Source: an uncultured Candidatus Binatia bacterium (GTDB taxonomy: Bacteria > Desulfobacterota > Binatia > UBA9968 > JAJDTQ01). Taken from it: a DNA stretch of 64,000 nucleotides. Within the stretch, counting starts at the first letter, position 1. Every line of letters starts with the position of its first letter. The notes beneath the pieces are model-generated. The model did not search any database. It was not told the origin of the DNA and was given only the letters and a program-made list of their open reading frames with translations. Both the position numbers and the translations under genes were made by a program. Location: contig OZ243984.1 in NCBI GenBank assembly GCA_965214905.1, forward strand, positions 3,504,628 through 3,568,627. Reading direction: 5' to 3'. Positions 4,425 through 12,303 of this stretch are shown one piece after another.

Positions 4425-6704
4425 TCAGCGATTATCAATTGGCTCCGCGTCGATTTCGGAACTGCCCTGCGACAGGGCTTGAGAACCGACAAACTCGATG
4501 ATCTGCGGCAGTGTCACGGCGCCGATGCGCCGGGCCTCGCGCAACAAGAGCAGCGCGGCAACGGTGGCCTCGGCACTCGTCGCAACCTGTTGCAGGTTTT
4601 GCCGGACGGTTTGGGGCAGTGCGTCGCCGATGGCCTCCAGGAGATCGGCTTCGATTTGCTGCTCGACGACGCGCCCACGTTCGGTTTCGTCGGCGAGGGA
4701 CAGCGCTCTGCGCCATTTGTCGAGATGTCTGGATCGGATCGCCAGTAGATCGAGCCCCGGGTTACCCAACCGGGCGGCGCACTCCGCAACCATCGGGTCG
4801 AACCGATACGCTTCCCATCCAAGATCGATGCGGCCAATGAGGTCTGCAACGAGCCTCGGGCCGTCCTCCGGGTGGTGGAGCAGGTCGCAGGCTTCAATTG
4901 CGTCGATACCTGAAGGCTGCTCGGCGACGAAATACACACTCGCGTAAAACGAGGTCCGGGTCGGACATCCTATTGTGCTCCCGCAACTGCTTCAGCGCAT
5001 CGGCAAACTGCAGGTACGCAGGGCGATACGCTTCTCCGCGCGGTCCGTTCCGGTCGAGCATGAGCAGCAGGTCGAGCAGGAATGACCGTTCGGTGCTTCG
5101 ATCCAACCCGGGTCTGACGCTGCCGATGAGGTCAAGCAGCCGCTCGATTTCCTGGCTTGGGCTGAGACGCCGTCCGCAAACGATCTCTGCCTAGAGTTGT
5201 ATGCGTGGCGAAATCATATAGTTCGATCCTTCCTCGTCCTCTCGCCAACGGAACAGGTCGAGGTCGGCAAGGAGATGGCTGATTTGATCCTGATGCAGTC
5301 CGCCGGTCTGACCAAGCACCCGAAAAACGAGATTGACGGGTACCGGGCAATTCAGCCGTCCGGCCACCATGACATAGTCGATCAGCCGTCCCGCCGCGTC
5401 GAGGCCCAAAACTGCGAGCTTTTCATCGTCCTCGAATACCTGCGAGGTAGGGCTGGCAATGCCCAACTCAATCAACTGCTCCGCTATGCTGGATAGTCCG
5501 TTAGAGGGTCGCGGCACATGCCGTGCCCGATCCCGTACGACACTTTCGGCAGCTCTGGCTTCCGACGACACGCCGGCGGCCAGCCGCCCGCGCGCCACGG
5601 GTAACCTGCGATACAGCATGGCAAAGATGGAGTCACTGGTGTTCGGTCCATAGTGCGGCTCAACCTGGAAGTCGTCCCGTAGTTTCTCGAACGCGGCCAG
5701 ATCCAGGGACGAGACACGGGCTGGCGCCTCGACGAACCGGTCCGACCTGCCGATGCTCTTTCCTGTGCCCGACTGTCCGTGCAGGACGACGACATCGTCG
5801 GAGTCGGGTTGCCCGAGCCGCTTCAGTTTGTCATTCACTGTCCTCCAAAGGGTATCCTCGAACTCGCGTTCCACCGCGAACCCGCGCGATATCCCCTCTA
5901 CCAGCAATCTGAAGTTGCCAGGGGTACTGTGGAAGCGACGGAACGCATCGTACGCTTCGGAGTCGTCCATTGGCTCGGGCTCTTGCGTCCACCCGTCATC
6001 GACAATGGCGGCCGATGCTTCTACTCGAAGACGCGCAGGGCCGGTGTAATATCCAGCGTCGCGTTCCCGGCAAGCGACACCAAGCCCGGATCGTCCGGCG
6101 CAGCGGACCCCGCAACGTCGAGCACCCCGCGAAGTTCAAGCTGACGGATTGCGCTCGCGAGAGTTGCCGTAGTCGGAATGAGCAATTTTTGCCGGATCAT
6201 CTCATCGGCTATGCTTGAGTCCTCGACTTCGCCGGGATAGCCGAACCATAGAACCCTGGGGCCTGCTTGGCCGGATAGAGGCGCCAATAGGGAATTCGGC
6301 GGTATCCAATCCCCGTTCGGGTCGTAACCCGCTATGACCACCAAACCGCCCACCGTCGCCGTCTCCGCGATACGGTTAAGCAATTGCGTTGCGTGCAGGA
6401 TGAGGCGGCGCGTCAGATCGCTTTGCTTTCGAGGTGATCGCGCTTTCTCAATGGTTTCACTGGACTTTCCAAGGAGATAGTAGATTGGAGGTCTCGATCG
6501 ACTGCGCGGCACCCTCGCGTAGGTGTCTTTGGAGAGTACCGGCTCGGGTTGCCTACCGCGGGTCTCGAAACGTCTCGCAAACCGGGGGTCGATGGAGGAC
6601 GTGAACACCGCGCTCCAGGCAACCTCGAAGATGGTGGCGGCAGCGTCGGAGGGTACGCTTCGCTCAAACCGTTCGGAAAGCCACGTCATGTCGGATGCGC
6701 TCAA
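4425..6704 (-). pseudogene. Fragmented large NTPase gene read across three or more frames: ORFs 6704-6021, 5970-5191 and 5106-4425. The middle piece carries a Walker A motif (VVVLHGQSGTGKS). The N-terminal piece has possible SIR2_2-like motifs (VFTSSIDPRFARRFE, IYYLLGKSS). The whole looks like a decayed STAND/SIR2-type defence ATPase.
   Basis: Three consecutive same-strand ORFs are separated by stops and frame changes. Sequence after the GKS motif looks out of frame. GC is lower than in the flanks. Confidence 0.4.
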
Positions 6705-7016
6705 ACCTTGCTTGATCGCCGCACGCCACCCCGAATCGCGGTCCGCGCCTTCAATGCGGCGGAGGAGGGTGCCGAGTATTGCATCGTGCGCCGTATCGAG
6801 ACTGTTTGACTCACCGTGTCGTCCACCATGGAGTAACCAGCCGGAACCGGCTGAACGACGGTCCTGCCCCGTTTCCCGATTCTCGCCGGTGCGCGGCGTC
6901 CGAGAGTGTCAAAGGCGGCGCTTCCGCACATCCTGCTCCGTCCAGTCAGGTAGGTGAGCCGTCATCAACGCCTTGAACAGCTTGCCGTGCCGGGTCGAGA
7001 ATACCACGCTGGCCAA

Positions 7017-7380
7017 TCAGTAGGCGCTGCCGCGGTAGGTGTACGGCCTCGACGTGCCTTGGCCTGCGCTGACTACGATCACCTCACGGTTGCCATCCAC
7101 GCGGACCCGTTCGACCGTCGGAAACGCCGGAGGATCGATTTGCTGAAGCTCGGCGCTCAAGTGCTCAATGGTGCGCTCGCTGACCTGCTGCCCAACCGGG
7201 ACCCGTCCGGCGTCACCCCGAGCAGCACCTGTCCGCCGCGCTGATTCAGAAAGGCGCACACTGTCCTGGCCGCCTCGCGGCGCGCCCAGTGGTCTTTTTG
7301 AACTCCAGCGTTTCCGACTCGCCGGACGCGGCCAGCGCTACGATCTCGTCAAGCGTCAACATAGTGACCTCACATCTTCT
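7017..7380 (-). pseudogene. Remnant of an AlbA_2 (Schlafen-like, 'divergent AAA'/RecG-like) DNA-binding protein gene, frameshifted
   Basis: The reverse strand at 7380-7262 translates to MLTLDEIVALAASGESETLEFK..., the hallmark AlbA_2 N-terminus, then hits a stop. A second frame, 7259-7017, continues through ...VDGNREVIVVSAGQG. Confidence 0.4.
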
Positions 7381-7553
7381 GTAGTAGCTGCCGAGTTCAC
7401 CCCTTGCTTCTCGTCATGTCGGGCGCGGCCAATCGGCCGTCTGCTTGATCCTGCTTGATAAGCTGACGGATTGGTCATATTGTTAATCCCTTATCCGTGA
7501 CGTTCTGCCGTTTTTGCTCCCAGCTATGCCGGGTTAGTGTCGAGGAGTCGGTT

Positions 7554-7787
7554 ATGGTCATGATAAGCGTCCATGAAGCGAAGATGCATCTGTCCCGCCT
7601 TCTCGTGCAGGTCGAGGCCGGCGGGGAGGTTGTCATCGCACGCAACGGTAAGCCGGTGGCACGGCTCGTAAGGGTCCAAAAGCGTGGCAAGCGGCAATTC
7701 GGCTCATGGAAGGGACGGATAACGATCGACGACAGCTTCTTCGACCCGCTGCCGGAGGATGAGTTGAAGGCATGGGAAGGTGAATAG
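7554..7787 (+). CDS. Type II antitoxin, Phd/YefM family
   Basis: MVMISVHEAKMHLSRLLVQVEAGGEVVIARNGKPVARLV is the classic Phd/YefM fold signature. A VapC-like remnant follows immediately. Confidence 0.8.
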   Translation: MVMISVHEAKMHLSRLLVQVEAGGEVVIARNGKPVARLVRVQKRGKRQFGSWKGRITIDDSFFDPLPEDELKAWEGE

Positions 7788-7901
7788 CAGTTGCGGGCAC
7801 TGTTGGATGCTCATACTTTTCTTTGGTGGATCACAGATAGCAGCCGTCTGTCTGAGGCGGTGCGCCAGACGATTGCAGGTGCGCAACCAAGCCGAATTTG
7901 A
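7788..7901 (+). pseudogene. Truncated PIN-domain toxin (VapC) remnant. Only about 37 codons remain (…LLDAHTFLWWITDSSRLSEAVRQTIAGAQ…), ending at TGA.
   Basis: The frame that starts directly after the Phd stop encodes LLDAHTFLWW, the VapC N-terminal motif, but stops after 37 aa. No PIN continuation appears in any frame. Confidence 0.55.
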
Positions 7902-8009
7902 CACTTGGCGCGCGACACGTCATCCTTCCGTCAAAGGTTTCCCCGATGACAAGTGCTCCAGGTGAGCACTCTCAGAAGGAGTAGTTGGGGGGATCTTTTT
8001 TGGGACCAG

Positions 8010-8336
8010 CTACTCCCTCACGTGGTAGATGCGCTTTTGCATATCGCCGGTGATTACATCGACCACTCGATGGACGAGCGGTCGTAATTCCTGTACGCGC
8101 GTTCGCGACGCGATCATCACCACTACCGGAATCGGCAGATCGTCCAGGTTCTGCTGGTATTCAATGCCCTGATCCGCAGTGATGAATGCATCGAAATCAT
8201 GGGCTGCCGCCAGTTTCAGAAGATCGCCATTCGATCTGCCCGCCCATCCCATTTCCGGCACCGTGACCATCTCGAAGCGACCTGGGAAGTGCGTACGAAG
8301 GGGCCTCGGCATCGACTCGTCAAGAAGCAGCCTCAT
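8010..8336 (-). CDS. DUF5615 family PIN-like putative toxin
   Basis: MRLLLDESMP... N-terminus. It is paired with, and overlaps by 17 bp, the upstream DUF433 gene. Confidence 0.7.
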   Translation of the reverse strand: MRLLLDESMPRPLRTHFPGRFEMVTVPEMGWAGRSNGDLLKLAAAHDFDAFITADQGIEYQQNLDDLPIPVVVMIASRTRVQELRPLVHRVVDVITGDMQKRIYHVRE

Positions 8337-8544
8337 CCGACGTTCCGGTGAGTGAAGCCTTTGCGCGTTCAAGGACCTCGATGGCTTGGCTACGCGACAC
8401 CGTGGGATAGCTTTCGAGGAAGTCGTCAAGCCGGTCGCCCGCTTCCAGGTGCTCGATCAGGATACGTATGGGGACCCTGGTCCCAGGGAACACCGCCGTC
8501 CCGCCGAGAATGCCGAGTTCTTTGCTGATGCTCTTTTCCTTCAT
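8320..8544 (-). CDS. DUF433 domain protein (putative antitoxin partner of DUF5615)
   Basis: MKEKSISKELGILGGTAVFPGTRVPIRILIEHLEAGDRLDDFLESYP is DUF433-like. The RBS is GAGGTG. Confidence 0.7.
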   Translation of the reverse strand: MKEKSISKELGILGGTAVFPGTRVPIRILIEHLEAGDRLDDFLESYPTVSRSQAIEVLERAKASLTGTSDEAAS

Positions 8545-8629
8545 GGTTGCACCTCGGTTGGTTTCAGTCCCTGTGGCTATCTCTGCAAGCAATGGGTCTC
8601 ATCTTCTAAGCGCACTCAGTCTTGGCTGC

Positions 8630-8896
8630 CTAGTGACGCGCCCCGATCCTCTCATCAAACACGAGGCGATTTCGCATTCCCAGGATTTCCTGCCAAGGGA
8701 CTCCCGGCGCTTGTGTTCGAGAAGATTCGGTTACTTGAGCTGCTGCTTCGCCAGTAATCTCAATGTCTTTGACCAACGACAGAAGCAGTTGGCGGTCGGT
8801 CTCCAAGTCACCTCGTGCTCGATCACGGGCAAACAACACGGCCTCACGGGGGGCGTCGAGCATATGGCGCAGGCGGATTACGTTATCCTTGAACAT
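8630..8896 (-). CDS. HepT-like (DUF86) toxin, apparently truncated or degenerate
   Basis: ...VPWQEILGMRNRLVFDERIGARH* stops where HepT proteins normally continue (Rx4HxY then ...VW). The catalytic H and Y positions read F and E. It overlaps the MntA gene by 14 bp. Confidence 0.55.
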   Translation of the reverse strand: MFKDNVIRLRHMLDAPREAVLFARDRARGDLETDRQLLLSLVKDIEITGEAAAQVTESSRTQAPGVPWQEILGMRNRLVFDERIGARH

Positions 8897-9188
8897 ATTG
8901 CACTTCCGCCGCGTCCAGCACTTCTTGCCGGAAATAGTGGCTCAGGTCCTCGATCGTTCGCAGATCGACCTTGCGTCCCGAGAACAGGTCGAACAACTCC
9001 ATCTCCATGCCGGCAACGCCCAGTAGCCCAGGAATCCGGTTCGGCTCGAACTCGACGAGTACGTCTATATCGCTCTCAGGTCCAAAGTTCTCGCGCAACG
9101 CCGAGCCAAAGACGGCAAGGCGCTTGATCCCATGCTCTTGGCAGAATGCGGCAAGCGCGTCCTTAGCGATCGATACCTGTGGATTCAT
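8883..9188 (-). CDS. MntA-type nucleotidyltransferase antitoxin
   Basis: LAVFGSALRENFGPESDIDVLVEF is the minimal NTase GS..DxD motif. Confidence 0.8.
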   Translation of the reverse strand: MNPQVSIAKDALAAFCQEHGIKRLAVFGSALRENFGPESDIDVLVEFEPNRIPGLLGVAGMEMELFDLFSGRKVDLRTIEDLSHYFRQEVLDAAEVQYVQG

Positions 9189-9224
9189 TGCTCGTGATCC
9201 TCCATTTCGGCAGAATTCCCCATC

Positions 9225-9509
9225 CTAGCCAAAAATCTCGCACTTCAGTTCTTCGTAGACCGTCATTCCAGGTTTGATGAGCGGGGCCAGGGTGTTGCGC
9301 ATGAATGCTTTCGCGTCGTTTCCACATTTCGTAAGGCCTGGAATTTGTTTGCTCGCAAGGTAAATCTCGCCACTGGCTGGCTTCAGGTCGTCGGGGGCAG
9401 CATCGGTTCTACCGGCAAGTGGTTTTCTCTTCTTCTTCAGGAGGTCTTCAAGCTTGTCTGCCTTACCAACCGACTCGGCGAGCGCCGTTAGGACCTCGTC
9501 GCAGAACAA
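9225..9509 (-). CDS. Hypothetical small protein. It may be a frameshifted C-terminal continuation of the upstream ATPase/Toprim gene.
   Basis: It begins 21 bp inside the end of the 9488-10798 ORF, in another frame. No motif was recognised. Confidence 0.3.
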   Translation of the reverse strand: MFCDEVLTALAESVGKADKLEDLLKKKRKPLAGRTDAAPDDLKPASGEIYLASKQIPGLTKCGNDAKAFMRNTLAPLIKPGMTVYEELKCEIFG

Positions 9510-10798
9510 GTATTATAAGACTCCAGATTACGCCTTGACAAGACCCGAACTCCGCCTTGCATCATATCGGCGACCTGTTGGTCGGATTGGTCATCACGGT
9601 CAATAAGTCTCACAACCTCCGAACCTTTGATTAACAAGCCGATGGCGTACGCTATCCCACGGCTGTCATTGGCTACACCTGATGCGTTGCCTCCGGGGAC
9701 GAATTGAGTTTCCGGGAACTTGTCTTGGAAAATAACTTCATAAGAAGGTGCATCATGGGCGTAGTTCTGTCCAGCGTTCTTGTTCTTCGGCTCGCCTTCA
9801 CAGATGACTACTCGTTCCGGCGCGACCAGCGTGGCCAAGTCGTCAAGCGCTACATCATGAGCTCTGTTCCAGAACACTCGATCGGGAGTCACGGGCTCAA
9901 TGACCTGTGGCTCATCAAAGTCGAGCTCATCGAAGTCAAGAAATACAACACTTCCAGGGTGCTCGGATTCAATGTCCCGAGCCCGGCGCATCATGCCAAT
10001 GGAGTGAGTCGCCAGCATCAATTGGCAATTTTCCGGAATTAGGCCGTAGAGCACAGACAGAAGTTCGGCCTGAAGAGGAGCGTTCAGGTGGGATTCGGGC
10101 TCGTCGATGCAAAACAGCGTGTCGTCGTAAGCCCGTCGCGCGACAATCAGATCAAGTATCAGGTCGACCGCAGCCTTTTCGCCCCCGGATAGGTTCTTGA
10201 ACGAGAAGCCGTTGCTCGTTCCTTTCGTGAATCGAAAGGTCCCATCCCCCAGCGGATTCCCGAGACTATCGAGCTCAACGTCGGAGAACAGCTTGGAGAA
10301 AGCTGTCCTTATATCTCCAATGACCAACTCTCGGAATTCGTTCAAAGTCACCAAGCCGTCTTCGGGGGCGAATATATCCTCAAGCGCTTGGCTGGCCAGT
10401 CGCTGAAAGTTTTTGGCTACAGCTCCATCGTTGTCGATCATGCGCGGAACTCGAATATCGTCCAATGGATCGCCAACTCGCTGAAGGTTCTGAATCTGGA
10501 ACCCTGGATCGTTCCTGTATGCTGATCTTACAAAGAGGGTCTTCTTTGGAGTTGGGGTAGGGATAGGATTGTGGAAATCTGTTTGGACATCATTACGCAA
10601 TCGGTCGCGAAATGGTGATCCGGTTTTGGCGTGATAATCCATTTCCCACGTTCGGTGTCTTTGGGACGTCCAGTTATGCCATGTATGAAGAGCATCAAGA
10701 AAGGATGACTTGCCGCATCCATTGGGTCCGGCGAGCATGATAAGGCGTGCCGTTTCCGGGATGCCTTGAATGGTCAGATGGGTGATTGCCTCATGCAC
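9488..10798 (-). CDS. OLD-family (overcoming lysogenization defect) ABC-type ATPase with a C-terminal Toprim-like domain. It is a PARIS/Gabija-GajA/DUF4276-like defence nuclease candidate.
   Basis: Walker A (LAGPNGCGKSSFLDAL), Walker B with downstream H (LFCIDEPESHLN...LMLATHS), and a C-terminal VVICEGEP...RLIDRDDQSD (Toprim E and DxD). The start is uncertain: GTG at 10798 is possible, but the ORF runs in-frame into the hsdS remnant. GC is lower, about 50%. Confidence 0.65.
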   Translation of the reverse strand: MHEAITHLTIQGIPETARLIMLAGPNGCGKSSFLDALHTWHNWTSQRHRTWEMDYHAKTGSPFRDRLRNDVQTDFHNPIPTPTPKKTLFVRSAYRNDPGFQIQNLQRVGDPLDDIRVPRMIDNDGAVAKNFQRLASQALEDIFAPEDGLVTLNEFRELVIGDIRTAFSKLFSDVELDSLGNPLGDGTFRFTKGTSNGFSFKNLSGGEKAAVDLILDLIVARRAYDDTLFCIDEPESHLNAPLQAELLSVLYGLIPENCQLMLATHSIGMMRRARDIESEHPGSVVFLDFDELDFDEPQVIEPVTPDRVFWNRAHDVALDDLATLVAPERVVICEGEPKNKNAGQNYAHDAPSYEVIFQDKFPETQFVPGGNASGVANDSRGIAYAIGLLIKGSEVVRLIDRDDQSDQQVADMMQGGVRVLSRRNLESYNTCSATRS

Positions 10799-11264
10799 AG
10801 GCCAAAGGACGCCAGCAAACTGGCGCTGTTCATCCAACGCGAAGTCGGGCGTTTCGAAGTCGCGTATGTGTGCCCATGAGGTCCTTGGATGCTGGACGCC
10901 AGTGGTTCCCGCTACGGCATAATCGAGGAAGGCAGGAGAATGCACGACTGTAACCAGGAAACGCGGGTCAATGCCTGCCTTCGCGCGCAGTACGAGCAAC
11001 TCCGTCGTACAGACGCCCGCCTCGTCAGCAAGGATCGCTTTTGTCGAGATAGGGACGGAGCTTTCCGTACAGCACGTCACCTGGTTGGAACGCGGACGCG
11101 GCGCTCCGCATGTCCGACGCTCGCCCGCCACCCGCGCGCGCAAGCCGCCCCGGAGCAAGATGTTCAAGGCCAAGGTAGAGAGAGTCCGGCCGCGCGCCCG
11201 GCTTGACCGGCTCCGCGATGAGATTGCACAGGTCCGAAAGGCGAGTGGCCTTACCATTCGTCAT
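10799..11264 (-). pseudogene. hsdS: Type I restriction-modification specificity subunit (HsdS) remnant. It has the N-terminal TRD plus the central conserved region, is frameshifted, and lacks the second TRD.
   Basis: Frame A (11264-11025) reads LSDLCNLIAEP...GDVLYGKLRPYLDKS. Frame B continues as ISTKAILADEAGVCTTELLVLRAK...LDEQRQFAGVLWPV. Both are HsdS hallmarks. Confidence 0.6.
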
Positions 11265-11726: not shown

Positions 11727-12180
11727 CTATAGTCGCGCCAACATTTTCGCCAACGTTGCATCGACCTTGCGGACCTCATCGTCAAGGCGCTGCATTGCAG
11801 CGATGATCCCGGAGATCGGACGCTGGGTCACGGCGTCGGTTTGTCCCACCCATCGGCTCGGGCTCAGGTTGTCGTCCGCGTCCTCCGTTTGCTCCCGCGT
11901 GATGACGGCGACCTCGCCCTCCACCGGCTCGCCCTTGGCGAACGCCGCTGCCAGCGGGGAGGTAGTCGTAGGCGCGGCCCAGGAAGTCGGGCTGCACGTC
12001 GGCGAGGCCGAGCCGGTAGCGTGGGTCGGAGAAGGTCTCCACCACCGCGGCGAGCCGGGCCGGGTTGACGTCGCGCTCGCCGTTGCGCTCGGACGCGAAG
12101 TCCACCAGGTCGATGATGCCGAGTCTGGCTCGGATAGCCCGTAGTGTGGCCGCTACCGAACGAGAACGAGATTCGGTCAT
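11727..12180 (-). pseudogene. hsdM: Fragment(s) of a type I RM methyltransferase subunit (HsdM), frameshifted and truncated
   Basis: ...[34 protein letters not shown]... matches the HsdM N-domain motif (D.LG.AYEYLL). It then degenerates into an Arg/Gly-rich out-of-frame tail. Confidence 0.4.
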
Positions 12181-12303
12181 ATCTTGCTTATGGCAGATAT
12201 GACTGAATAAAGCAGTCGACAGTGGGGTCGTGCGTCAGTTTGAAATCCCGTGCACTTACCCTGCACTCCGACCCCTCCCCCGGAGGGAGACGGGCTCTGC
12301 GGT

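Follow-up and report, generated by a model that had tools for sequence, protein, structure and literature searches.

In a stretch of 64,000 nucleotides (nt) from an uncultured Candidatus Binatia bacterium (contig OZ243984.1; the whole 64-kb stretch is called the window hereafter), an open reading frame (ORF) on the minus strand joins part of hsdS, a type I restriction-modification (RM) gene, to a gene encoding an ABC ATPase with a C-terminal Toprim-type domain. We found that the ATPase-Toprim gene is a decayed copy of a PARIS-like, single-gene defence module of the OLD superfamily. We are confident that this copy is a pseudogene, because the first beta-strand of the ABC domain and the C-terminal helical portion of the nuclease domain are both absent from its predicted products. 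The in-frame fusion is a deletion scar, known from one genome only, and not a new system; the joining of the two remnants in one frame is best explained by chance. The surrounding segment (12186-6921, minus strand) is very probably the wreck of a type I RM operon with the order hsdM, hsdS, ATPase-Toprim gene, AlbA_2 gene, hsdR and ygjP. An initial annotation, made from the letters of the DNA, had left the choice between a novel single-gene OLD-class system riding in a type I RM locus and a dead fusion. The latter is borne out by the deletion scar, the loss of 14 codons, the frameshifted tail and the gutted restriction locus. The former was overstated, as the relatives are numerous and already annotated, and their best profile is that of the described AriAB protein.

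The hsdS-ATPase junction and the lesions of the frame

The open frame runs from 11257 to 9488 without a stop codon and encodes 589 amino acids (aa), with the motifs of the ATPase-Toprim protein confined to the final 430 residues. The Walker A and B motifs and the EGE...DRDD Toprim-like end noted in the initial annotation were all located on the minus strand (Table 1), and its observation that the ATPase frame is open upstream into hsdS likewise held, with a PADLOC Specificity_I match emerging once the hsdS part was repaired. Pfam recovered AAA_21 (1.9e-16), SMC_N and AAA_15 in the frame, AAA_21 and AAA_15 exceeding their cut-offs. Neither the C-terminal region of the frame nor the separate 94-aa ORF at 9225-9509 gave any Pfam match at E <= 1, Toprim_OLD (PF20469) included, so that the Toprim call needed structure prediction.

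The hsdS part is itself damaged. Removal of one base joins the 79-aa ORF at 11264-11025 to the next frame in a 163-aa hsdS sequence, which matches Specificity_I (3.2e-28) over profile positions 4-154 of 387; residues 3-160 of HsdS from the closest locus, L001, our DNA reference, share 67-77% identity with it, and tblastn recovers it as two pieces (residues 3-75 and 70-160) in two frames. The frameshift stems from one extra A in the run 11042-11039 (GACAAAAGCG against GAC-AAGGCC in L001), and consequently the 589-aa ORF starts out of frame with the hsdS start. A whole HsdS has two target-recognition domains with central and distal conserved regions, of which only the frameshifted residues 1-160 are present here. 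A second half of hsdS was found neither downstream nor anywhere across the window, and the initial description of the ATPase gene as embedded in hsdS therefore does not stand. Pfam Methylase_S was in none of the best 120 matches.

Comparison with L001 places the junction precisely. The blastn alignment breaks between window 10783 (L001 7218) and window 10774 (L001 8052), the matching blocks being 12121-11960 with L001 5547-5708, 11958-11838 with 6498-6618, 11243-10783 with 6759-7218 and 10774-9228 with 8052-9593. The stretch missing relative to the L001-type arrangement (7219-8051) is approximately 833 bp long and encompasses hsdS codons 161-419 and ATPase codons 1-14. Base by base, the tetranucleotide TCAC is common to both flanks, and the junction is typical of a deletion by illegitimate recombination. 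This event, spanning ~833 bp at the 4-nt TCAC microhomology, took the distal 60% of hsdS together with the first 14 ATPase codons. The main frame is 77% identical to the L001 ATPase gene at the nucleotide level, from nt 52 of that gene onward, and the window reads ...LDEQRQFAGVLWPVHEAITHLTIQGIPETARLIMLAGPNG where the homologues have their own start, such that ATPase residues 1-14 are replaced by hsdS sequence in the alignment. In an AlphaFold2 model of P0003, the intact protein of L001 (pLDDT, or predicted local distance difference test, 83), the N-terminal sheet opens, before the P-loop, with a strand at residues 3-11, and it is this strand that is missing in the window. The GTG at 10798 had been taken for the sole internal start, lacking a ribosome-binding site. 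In fact a TTG at 10837 and an ATG at 10738 are also in frame 5' of Walker A; the second part of the statement stands, as a Shine-Dalgarno sequence was found at none of the three. The fusion is not conserved: the 589-aa ORF (P0001) is the only member of its cluster and occurs on a single contig.

At the other end, a 5-nt insertion at 9514-9510 shifts the frame of the last ~90 codons of the ATPase gene and leads to a premature stop at 9490-9488. The homologues continue unbroken through RNLESYLFDDEVL... to ...DIFG, which identifies the 94-aa ORF as the displaced C-terminal tail; this had been suspected at the outset, and the ORF aligns with the last ~90 residues of 14 of 14 homologues. The invariant K, G, F and T positions of the homologue tails lie in this ORF, whose TTG start is spurious. 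In the P0003 model the frameshifted part corresponds to the helices H441-H530, which carry several invariant residues.

The same insertion creates, at 9541-9512 on the minus strand, a sigma-70-like site close to the consensus (TTGTCA-18 nt-TATAAT, 11 of 12 matches). TATAAT is lacking from the homologous L001 sequence, and the putative promoter faces an MNT/HepT toxin-antitoxin pair at 9188-8630. On the sequence of the site, the inactivating insertion might have been retained because the candidate promoter drives these two genes.

Whether any part of the frame still works has to be judged against these lesions. A functional in-frame chimera, in the form of an HsdS-targeted ATPase-Toprim protein or of a shortened ATPase-Toprim protein begun at GTG 10798 or ATG 10738, appears very improbable. 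The frame is open from 11257 to 9488, every ATPase and Toprim motif residue is kept and damaging substitutions are not in excess, all of which would suit such a protein. Yet the hsdS start and its first 75 codons are in another frame than the remainder, the internal starts are without Shine-Dalgarno sequences, the protein has lost residues 1-14 and with them the strand that begins the ABC N-terminal sheet, the last ~90 residues, several of them invariant, are out of frame, the fusion occurs in a single genome, and hsdM and hsdR, the required partners of an HsdS domain, are destroyed or absent. Expression of an active protein combining the HsdS target-recognition domain with the ATPase-Toprim part is thus, at best, highly unlikely. 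It is also improbable that the small indels are assembly errors and that the real gene is a complete ATPase-Toprim gene apart from its replaced N-terminus. The shift in hsdS is one extra A in an AAAA run, a typical site of long-read error, but the tail shift is a 5-nt non-homopolymer insertion, and the deletions of 833 bp and 789 bp (the latter in hsdM), an AlbA_2 stub with two frame changes and a missing hsdR are not base-calling errors. Moreover, repair of both indels would still leave the gene without its own start codon and first 14 residues.

Two points weigh against our interpretation of the copy as a pseudogene. A sequencing error may account for the single extra A in hsdS, which sits in a 4-A run, though base-calling cannot explain the 5-nt insertion or the large deletions. 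Furthermore, the window copy has 8 unique changes at otherwise invariant columns against 0-16 in the intact homologues, and by this singleton count, used as an indicator of relaxed selection, it is not distinguishable from them. As there is no clear excess of substitutions, the decay would be recent and it is the structural lesions alone that argue for loss of function. We accordingly regard the window copy as a pseudogene that was probably inactivated recently.

The intact family and its affinities

Searches with the repaired window protein as query recovered many intact homologues of 529-545 aa, 65-79% identical to it and covering 100% of its length. They all start M[KR]FKSxxIKDFKRFTxLTVQG[IV]PETARLIMLAGPNG, and are labeled in their sources as AAA family ATPases or OLD-family endonucleases. 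Fourteen of them were aligned with the window sequence (alignment A1). Across 66 sequences the residues Glu343 and Asp409/Asp411 are invariant. A model of the C-terminal domain alone (pLDDT 87) displays a four-stranded beta-alpha core followed by a helical bundle, with the invariant Glu of CEGE placed after strand 1 and the invariant DxD of DRDD after strand 3. The Toprim fold proposed from the motifs is present in the predicted structure, so that the condition named at the outset for refuting the observation, a lack of that fold, did not arise; the family unites the N-terminal ABC ATPase motifs and the C-terminal Toprim fold with Glu and DxD that characterize the OLD superfamily.

The closest affinities are with PARIS, which is made up of an ABC ATPase (AriA) and a Toprim nuclease (AriB) (Burman et al. 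2024, PMC11464382; PMC12707154; Rousset et al. 2022, PMC9122126) and is encoded as a single-gene ariAB fusion in 2 of its 11 clades (PMC11464382). In PADLOC, three intact proteins had AriAB as their best-matching profile (8e-26, 2e-30 and 6e-24; 83-104 bits), with alignments spanning the ATPase C-lobe into the Toprim domain. Among 20 isolated C-terminal domains, AriAB matched 19 and AriB 5. AriB was also the top structural neighbour of the C-terminal domain, which is a nuclease domain of the AriB type. As in fused PARIS, one polypeptide carries an AAA_15/AAA_21-type ABC ATPase and then an AriB-like Toprim domain with Glu and DxD, and the position of the family in type I operons fits the role of PARIS as an anti-restriction sensor. 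The architecture is that of fused PARIS (AriAB), class 4 of the OLD superfamily, and the family can be no more than a divergent member, or a variant, of fused PARIS. We infer that the intact ancestor of the window copy came from a widespread family of single genes, each encoding an ABC ATPase fused to a Toprim nuclease like AriB. Unlike fused PARIS, the family protein is shorter, at about 535 aa, and its DUF4435 match is below the gathering score.

A serious alternative, though in our estimation an unlikely one, is that the intact family is better termed a class 1 OLD nuclease, stand-alone and DNA-cutting, than a tRNA-cutting fused PARIS. Class 1 OLD proteins (P2 Old and the Thermus scotoductus OLD, PDB 6P74) are likewise stand-alone ABC ATPase-Toprim proteins of similar length, and their structural likeness to the family runs over both domains; the full-length intact model matches PtuA, TsOLD and GajA. 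The best sequence profiles are, nonetheless, AriAB and AriB and not OLD or GajA, and Pfam Toprim_OLD occurs in 0 of 20 C-terminal domains as against weak DUF4435 matches in 7 of 20. Class 2 of the superfamily, Gabija GajA, differs in having an adjacent UvrD-like helicase, GajB. No helicase partner had been seen in the initial annotation, which proved correct: GajB is absent from the window, and the 83 loci examined for genomic context (80 from GTDB representative genomes plus L001-L003) show no conserved neighbour apart from type I genes.

We retain fused PARIS as the nearest relative; several observations weigh against extending its mechanism to the family. With the C-terminal domain alone the Foldseek matches were weak (AriB, E 0.011), and the AriAB match covers only part of the 694-position profile. 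The published detection rule for PARIS combines an AAA_15/AAA_21 ATPase with a DUF4435 domain (PMC9122126), and DUF4435 remained sub-threshold, detectable in 7 of 20 C-terminal domains (best E 0.0026; 11.8 bits for member 1 against a cut-off of 27). Toprim_OLD was not detected in the same 20 domains at E <= 5. Hence, of the profiles put forward for checking in the initial annotation, AAA_21 and AAA_15 matched, DUF4435 did so below threshold and Toprim_OLD did not. The PARIS-like mechanism is proposed by analogy, activation by Ocr and tRNA cleavage being established only for the PARIS system of E. coli B185 (PMC11464382, PMC12707154). Finally, about three quarters of the family members adjoin no restriction genes.

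A sequence profile search of PDB gave only ATPase matches with the whole-protein alignment and nothing meaningful with the alignment of the C-terminal domain. An identification with the restriction-associated family TIGR04435 was considered and rejected, as NCBIfam gave only weak, sub-threshold ATPase matches (~25-28 bits against a cut-off of 300 for that model). Neither a PrrC or RloC profile nor HEC-04 (Hma, 'guilt by embedding'), a fused ATPase-Toprim protein with proven defence activity, was among the listed matches, for the former those of PADLOC or Pfam and for the latter those of PADLOC for the intact proteins.

The genomic context separates one part of the family from the rest. L001 and L002 (the latter with the intact protein P0084) share the order hsdM, hsdS, ATPase gene, small or AlbA_2 genes, hsdR and YgjP-like gene, with the start of the ATPase gene abutting or overlapping the hsdS stop. 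In the context sample, type I genes lie within 7 kb (<=7 kb) in 21 of 83 loci; hsdS is directly upstream of the ATPase-Toprim gene in 18, and 12 of these 18 show a 4-nt overlap. The restriction-linked copies are mostly 58-79% identical to the window copy. The other ~60 loci come from many phyla, among them Bacteroidota, Poribacteria and Treponema, and have no conserved neighbour. A link of the whole family to restriction was hence rejected, only 21 of 83 loci having any type I gene in that range. The family is a mobile single-gene module, of which one subclade rides between hsdS and hsdR. Where the gene is embedded in a restriction operon, its 4-nt overlap with the hsdS stop suggests that the two genes are co-translated.

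Variants of the module were also seen. Three poribacterial loci (L063, L064 and L065, at about 7700-9960) encode a paralogue of 707-772 aa, from the same ATPase family, directly upstream and overlapping the ATPase-Toprim gene by 4 nt, and in L067 paralogue and ATPase-Toprim protein form a single 1225-aa ORF ending at about 11520; in this variant of the family two ATPases stand in tandem or are fused. Truncated or split copies occur in L033, L072, L024, L080, L061 and L027. In L033 only residues 1-348 are left beside an hsdS, and hsdR is only a trace. Decay of the module is thus recurrent.

Other remnants and foreign genes at the locus

The remaining operon genes are in no better state (Table 1). 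The 5' part of hsdM (residues 1-197) is missing from the window, and the first fragment, which matches L001 at 88% over 12121-11960 by blastn, is separated from the second by an internal deletion equivalent to L001 5709-6497 (789 bp) that removed the methyltransferase core. A joined reconstruction of 149 aa from the frame-1 and frame-2 parts gave no Pfam N6_Mtase match. The AlbA_2 stub consists of three pieces in different frames, 70-85% identical to the L002 protein. Similarity to hsdR was absent from the full 64-kb window even at E <= 1. A functional type I system comprises intact hsdM, hsdS and hsdR; here hsdM is fragmented, hsdS halved and hsdR absent.

Table 1. Features of the decayed operon and of the ORFs lying within it
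Feature	Position	Strand	Basis or remark
hsdM fragment 1, HsdM residues about 198-273	11959..12186	-	tblastn with L001 and L002 HsdM, 73-74% identity
hsdM fragment 2, C-terminal tail, about residues 535-611, other frame	11727..11958	-	blastn; tblastn (residues 524-612 at 11993-11730)
Clan AA aspartic protease ORF, 139 aa	11288..11707	-	NCBIfam TIGR03698 7.9e-23; Pfam gag-asp_proteas
hsdS 5' half: first target-recognition domain and start of central conserved region	10783..11264	-	residues 1-160 of ~420
Deletion junction, TCAC microhomology	10782..10785	-	joins hsdS codon ~160 to ATPase codon 14/15
ATPase-Toprim coding region including displaced tail	10782-9228	-	ABC ATPase, then Toprim-type domain
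ATPase-Toprim pseudogene, main frame	9515..10781	-	ABC ATPase from residue ~15, then Toprim core
Walker A, GPNGCGKS	10729-10706	-	motif
ABC signature, NLSGGEK	10195-10175	-	motif
Walker B, LFCIDEPE	10117-10094	-	motif
Toprim-like VVICEGE (Glu in ICEGE)	9811-9791	-	motif
Toprim-like LIDRDD (DxD in IDRDD)	9607-9590	-	motif
5 extra nt (AATA plus T) relative to L001	9510..9514	-	DNA alignment TCTTAT-AATA-CTTGTTC vs TCGTAT----CTGTTC
Displaced C-terminal helical nuclease part (94-aa ORF)	9225..9509	-	residue-for-residue alignment with last ~90 residues, 14/14 homologues
MNT (9188-8883) and HepT (8896-8630)	9188-8630	-	toxin-antitoxin-like pair
DUF433 (8592-8320) and DUF5615 (8429-8010)	8592-8010		toxin-antitoxin-like pair
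Phd/YefM antitoxin	7497-7787	+	no obvious intact toxin
AlbA_2/Schlafen-type fragment, residues 1-114/468, frameshifted	7020..7359	-	tblastn with L002 protein; Pfam SLFN_AlbA_2 5.7e-4
ygjP-like gene, last 23 codons	6921..6989	-	tblastn with YgjP_L001 residues 77-99, 65% identity

Foreign ORFs lie inside the wreck, namely the clan AA aspartic protease, the MNT/HepT pair, the DUF433/DUF5615 pair and the Phd antitoxin. The protease ORF (retropepsin-like) is not part of the ancestral operon; in the intact loci hsdM abuts or overlaps hsdS, with no gene at its position. Three toxin-antitoxin-like modules occupy 7497-9188, between the ATPase pseudogene and the AlbA_2 stub. Beyond the operon, 4425-6704 on the minus strand contains overlapping ORFs of 227, 259, 70 and 170 aa with a P-loop (GQSGTGKS) and no Pfam match, and has the appearance of a further large defence-type gene that frameshifts have broken up. 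The segment 4425-12300 lies between the genes of a TRAP and of an ABC transporter and has a guanine-plus-cytosine content of 50-58%, against 61-67% in the flanks. In annotation, hsdM, hsdS, the ariAB-like gene and the AlbA_2 gene should each be entered as a pseudogene, and as a decaying defence island the region should be counted neither as a defence system nor as a new fusion protein.

A possible backup to type I restriction

By analogy, the intact gene most likely serves as an abortive-infection backup to type I restriction, because of its AriAB-like architecture and, in the subclade of the window copy, its position inside a system attacked by Ocr-like proteins, in the same slot as prrC. The initial annotation had drawn its parallel to insertions between hsdM and hsdS; the intact relatives instead place the gene between hsdS and hsdR. 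This is also where prrC lies in the prr locus (EcoprrI, type IC). PrrC and RloC resemble the family as ABC-type ATPase defence genes in a type I locus that are thought to guard the restriction enzyme, but their effector is an anticodon-nuclease domain, in contrast to the C-terminal Toprim domain of the family. The site between hsdS and hsdR is a known hotspot for embedded defence genes, including DarTG2 (RRDM island), TgvAB (VPI-2) and PrrC. DarTG2/RRDM-type islands share with the intact loci an hsdM bearing a helix-turn-helix (HTH) domain upstream and an M48/YgjP-like gene after hsdR, whereas the embedded cargo proteins of the DarTG2 and TgvAB islands differ from the ATPase-Toprim family. HsdM of L001 (4894-6741) and of L002 (4844-6694) has an N-terminal HTH_3/HTH_31 domain, and the operon ends in a YgjP-like (M48-type) gene, a layout that resembles the regulator-RM-cargo-peptidase plan of the RptR/DarTG2 island (PMC12255303).

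In PARIS, detection of the T7 anti-restriction protein Ocr by AriA leads to the release of AriB, resulting in cleavage of tRNA-Lys and growth arrest (PMC11464382, PMC12707154, PMC9122126). On this model, the ATPase part of an intact family member would recognize some phage trigger, a plausible one being an anti-restriction protein by which the adjacent type I enzyme is disabled, and the triggered ATPase would unleash the Toprim nuclease on tRNA or DNA, thereby aborting the infection. As a variant of the built-in guard, the Toprim nuclease would do the job that the anticodon nuclease does in PrrC. We infer the trigger, the substrate and the oligomeric state of the intact family, as against its domain architecture, its conserved catalytic residues and its operon position with the overlapping genes, which are shown. 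With about three quarters of the members away from restriction genes, guarding restriction cannot be the role of the family as a whole. It is conceivable, although we put it forward only tentatively and by analogy, that the intact relatives constitute an undescribed clade of fused PARIS-like genes translationally coupled to hsdS and acting as a built-in anti-restriction guard. In the literature, of which our coverage was incomplete, we found no paper on this ATPase-Toprim family or on PARIS genes within hsd operons or coupled to hsdS.

Defence genes are already being sought and found inside restriction loci, and against that background the hsdS-coupled family is an incremental addition. Its intact members nevertheless constitute a large conserved ATPase-Toprim family of ~535 aa that Pfam sees only as generic AAA ATPases. 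The hsdS-adjacent subclade agrees with the view that type I restriction has a backup in PARIS-type sensors, and intact genes such as those encoding P0003 in L001 and P0084 in L002 are candidates for testing it.

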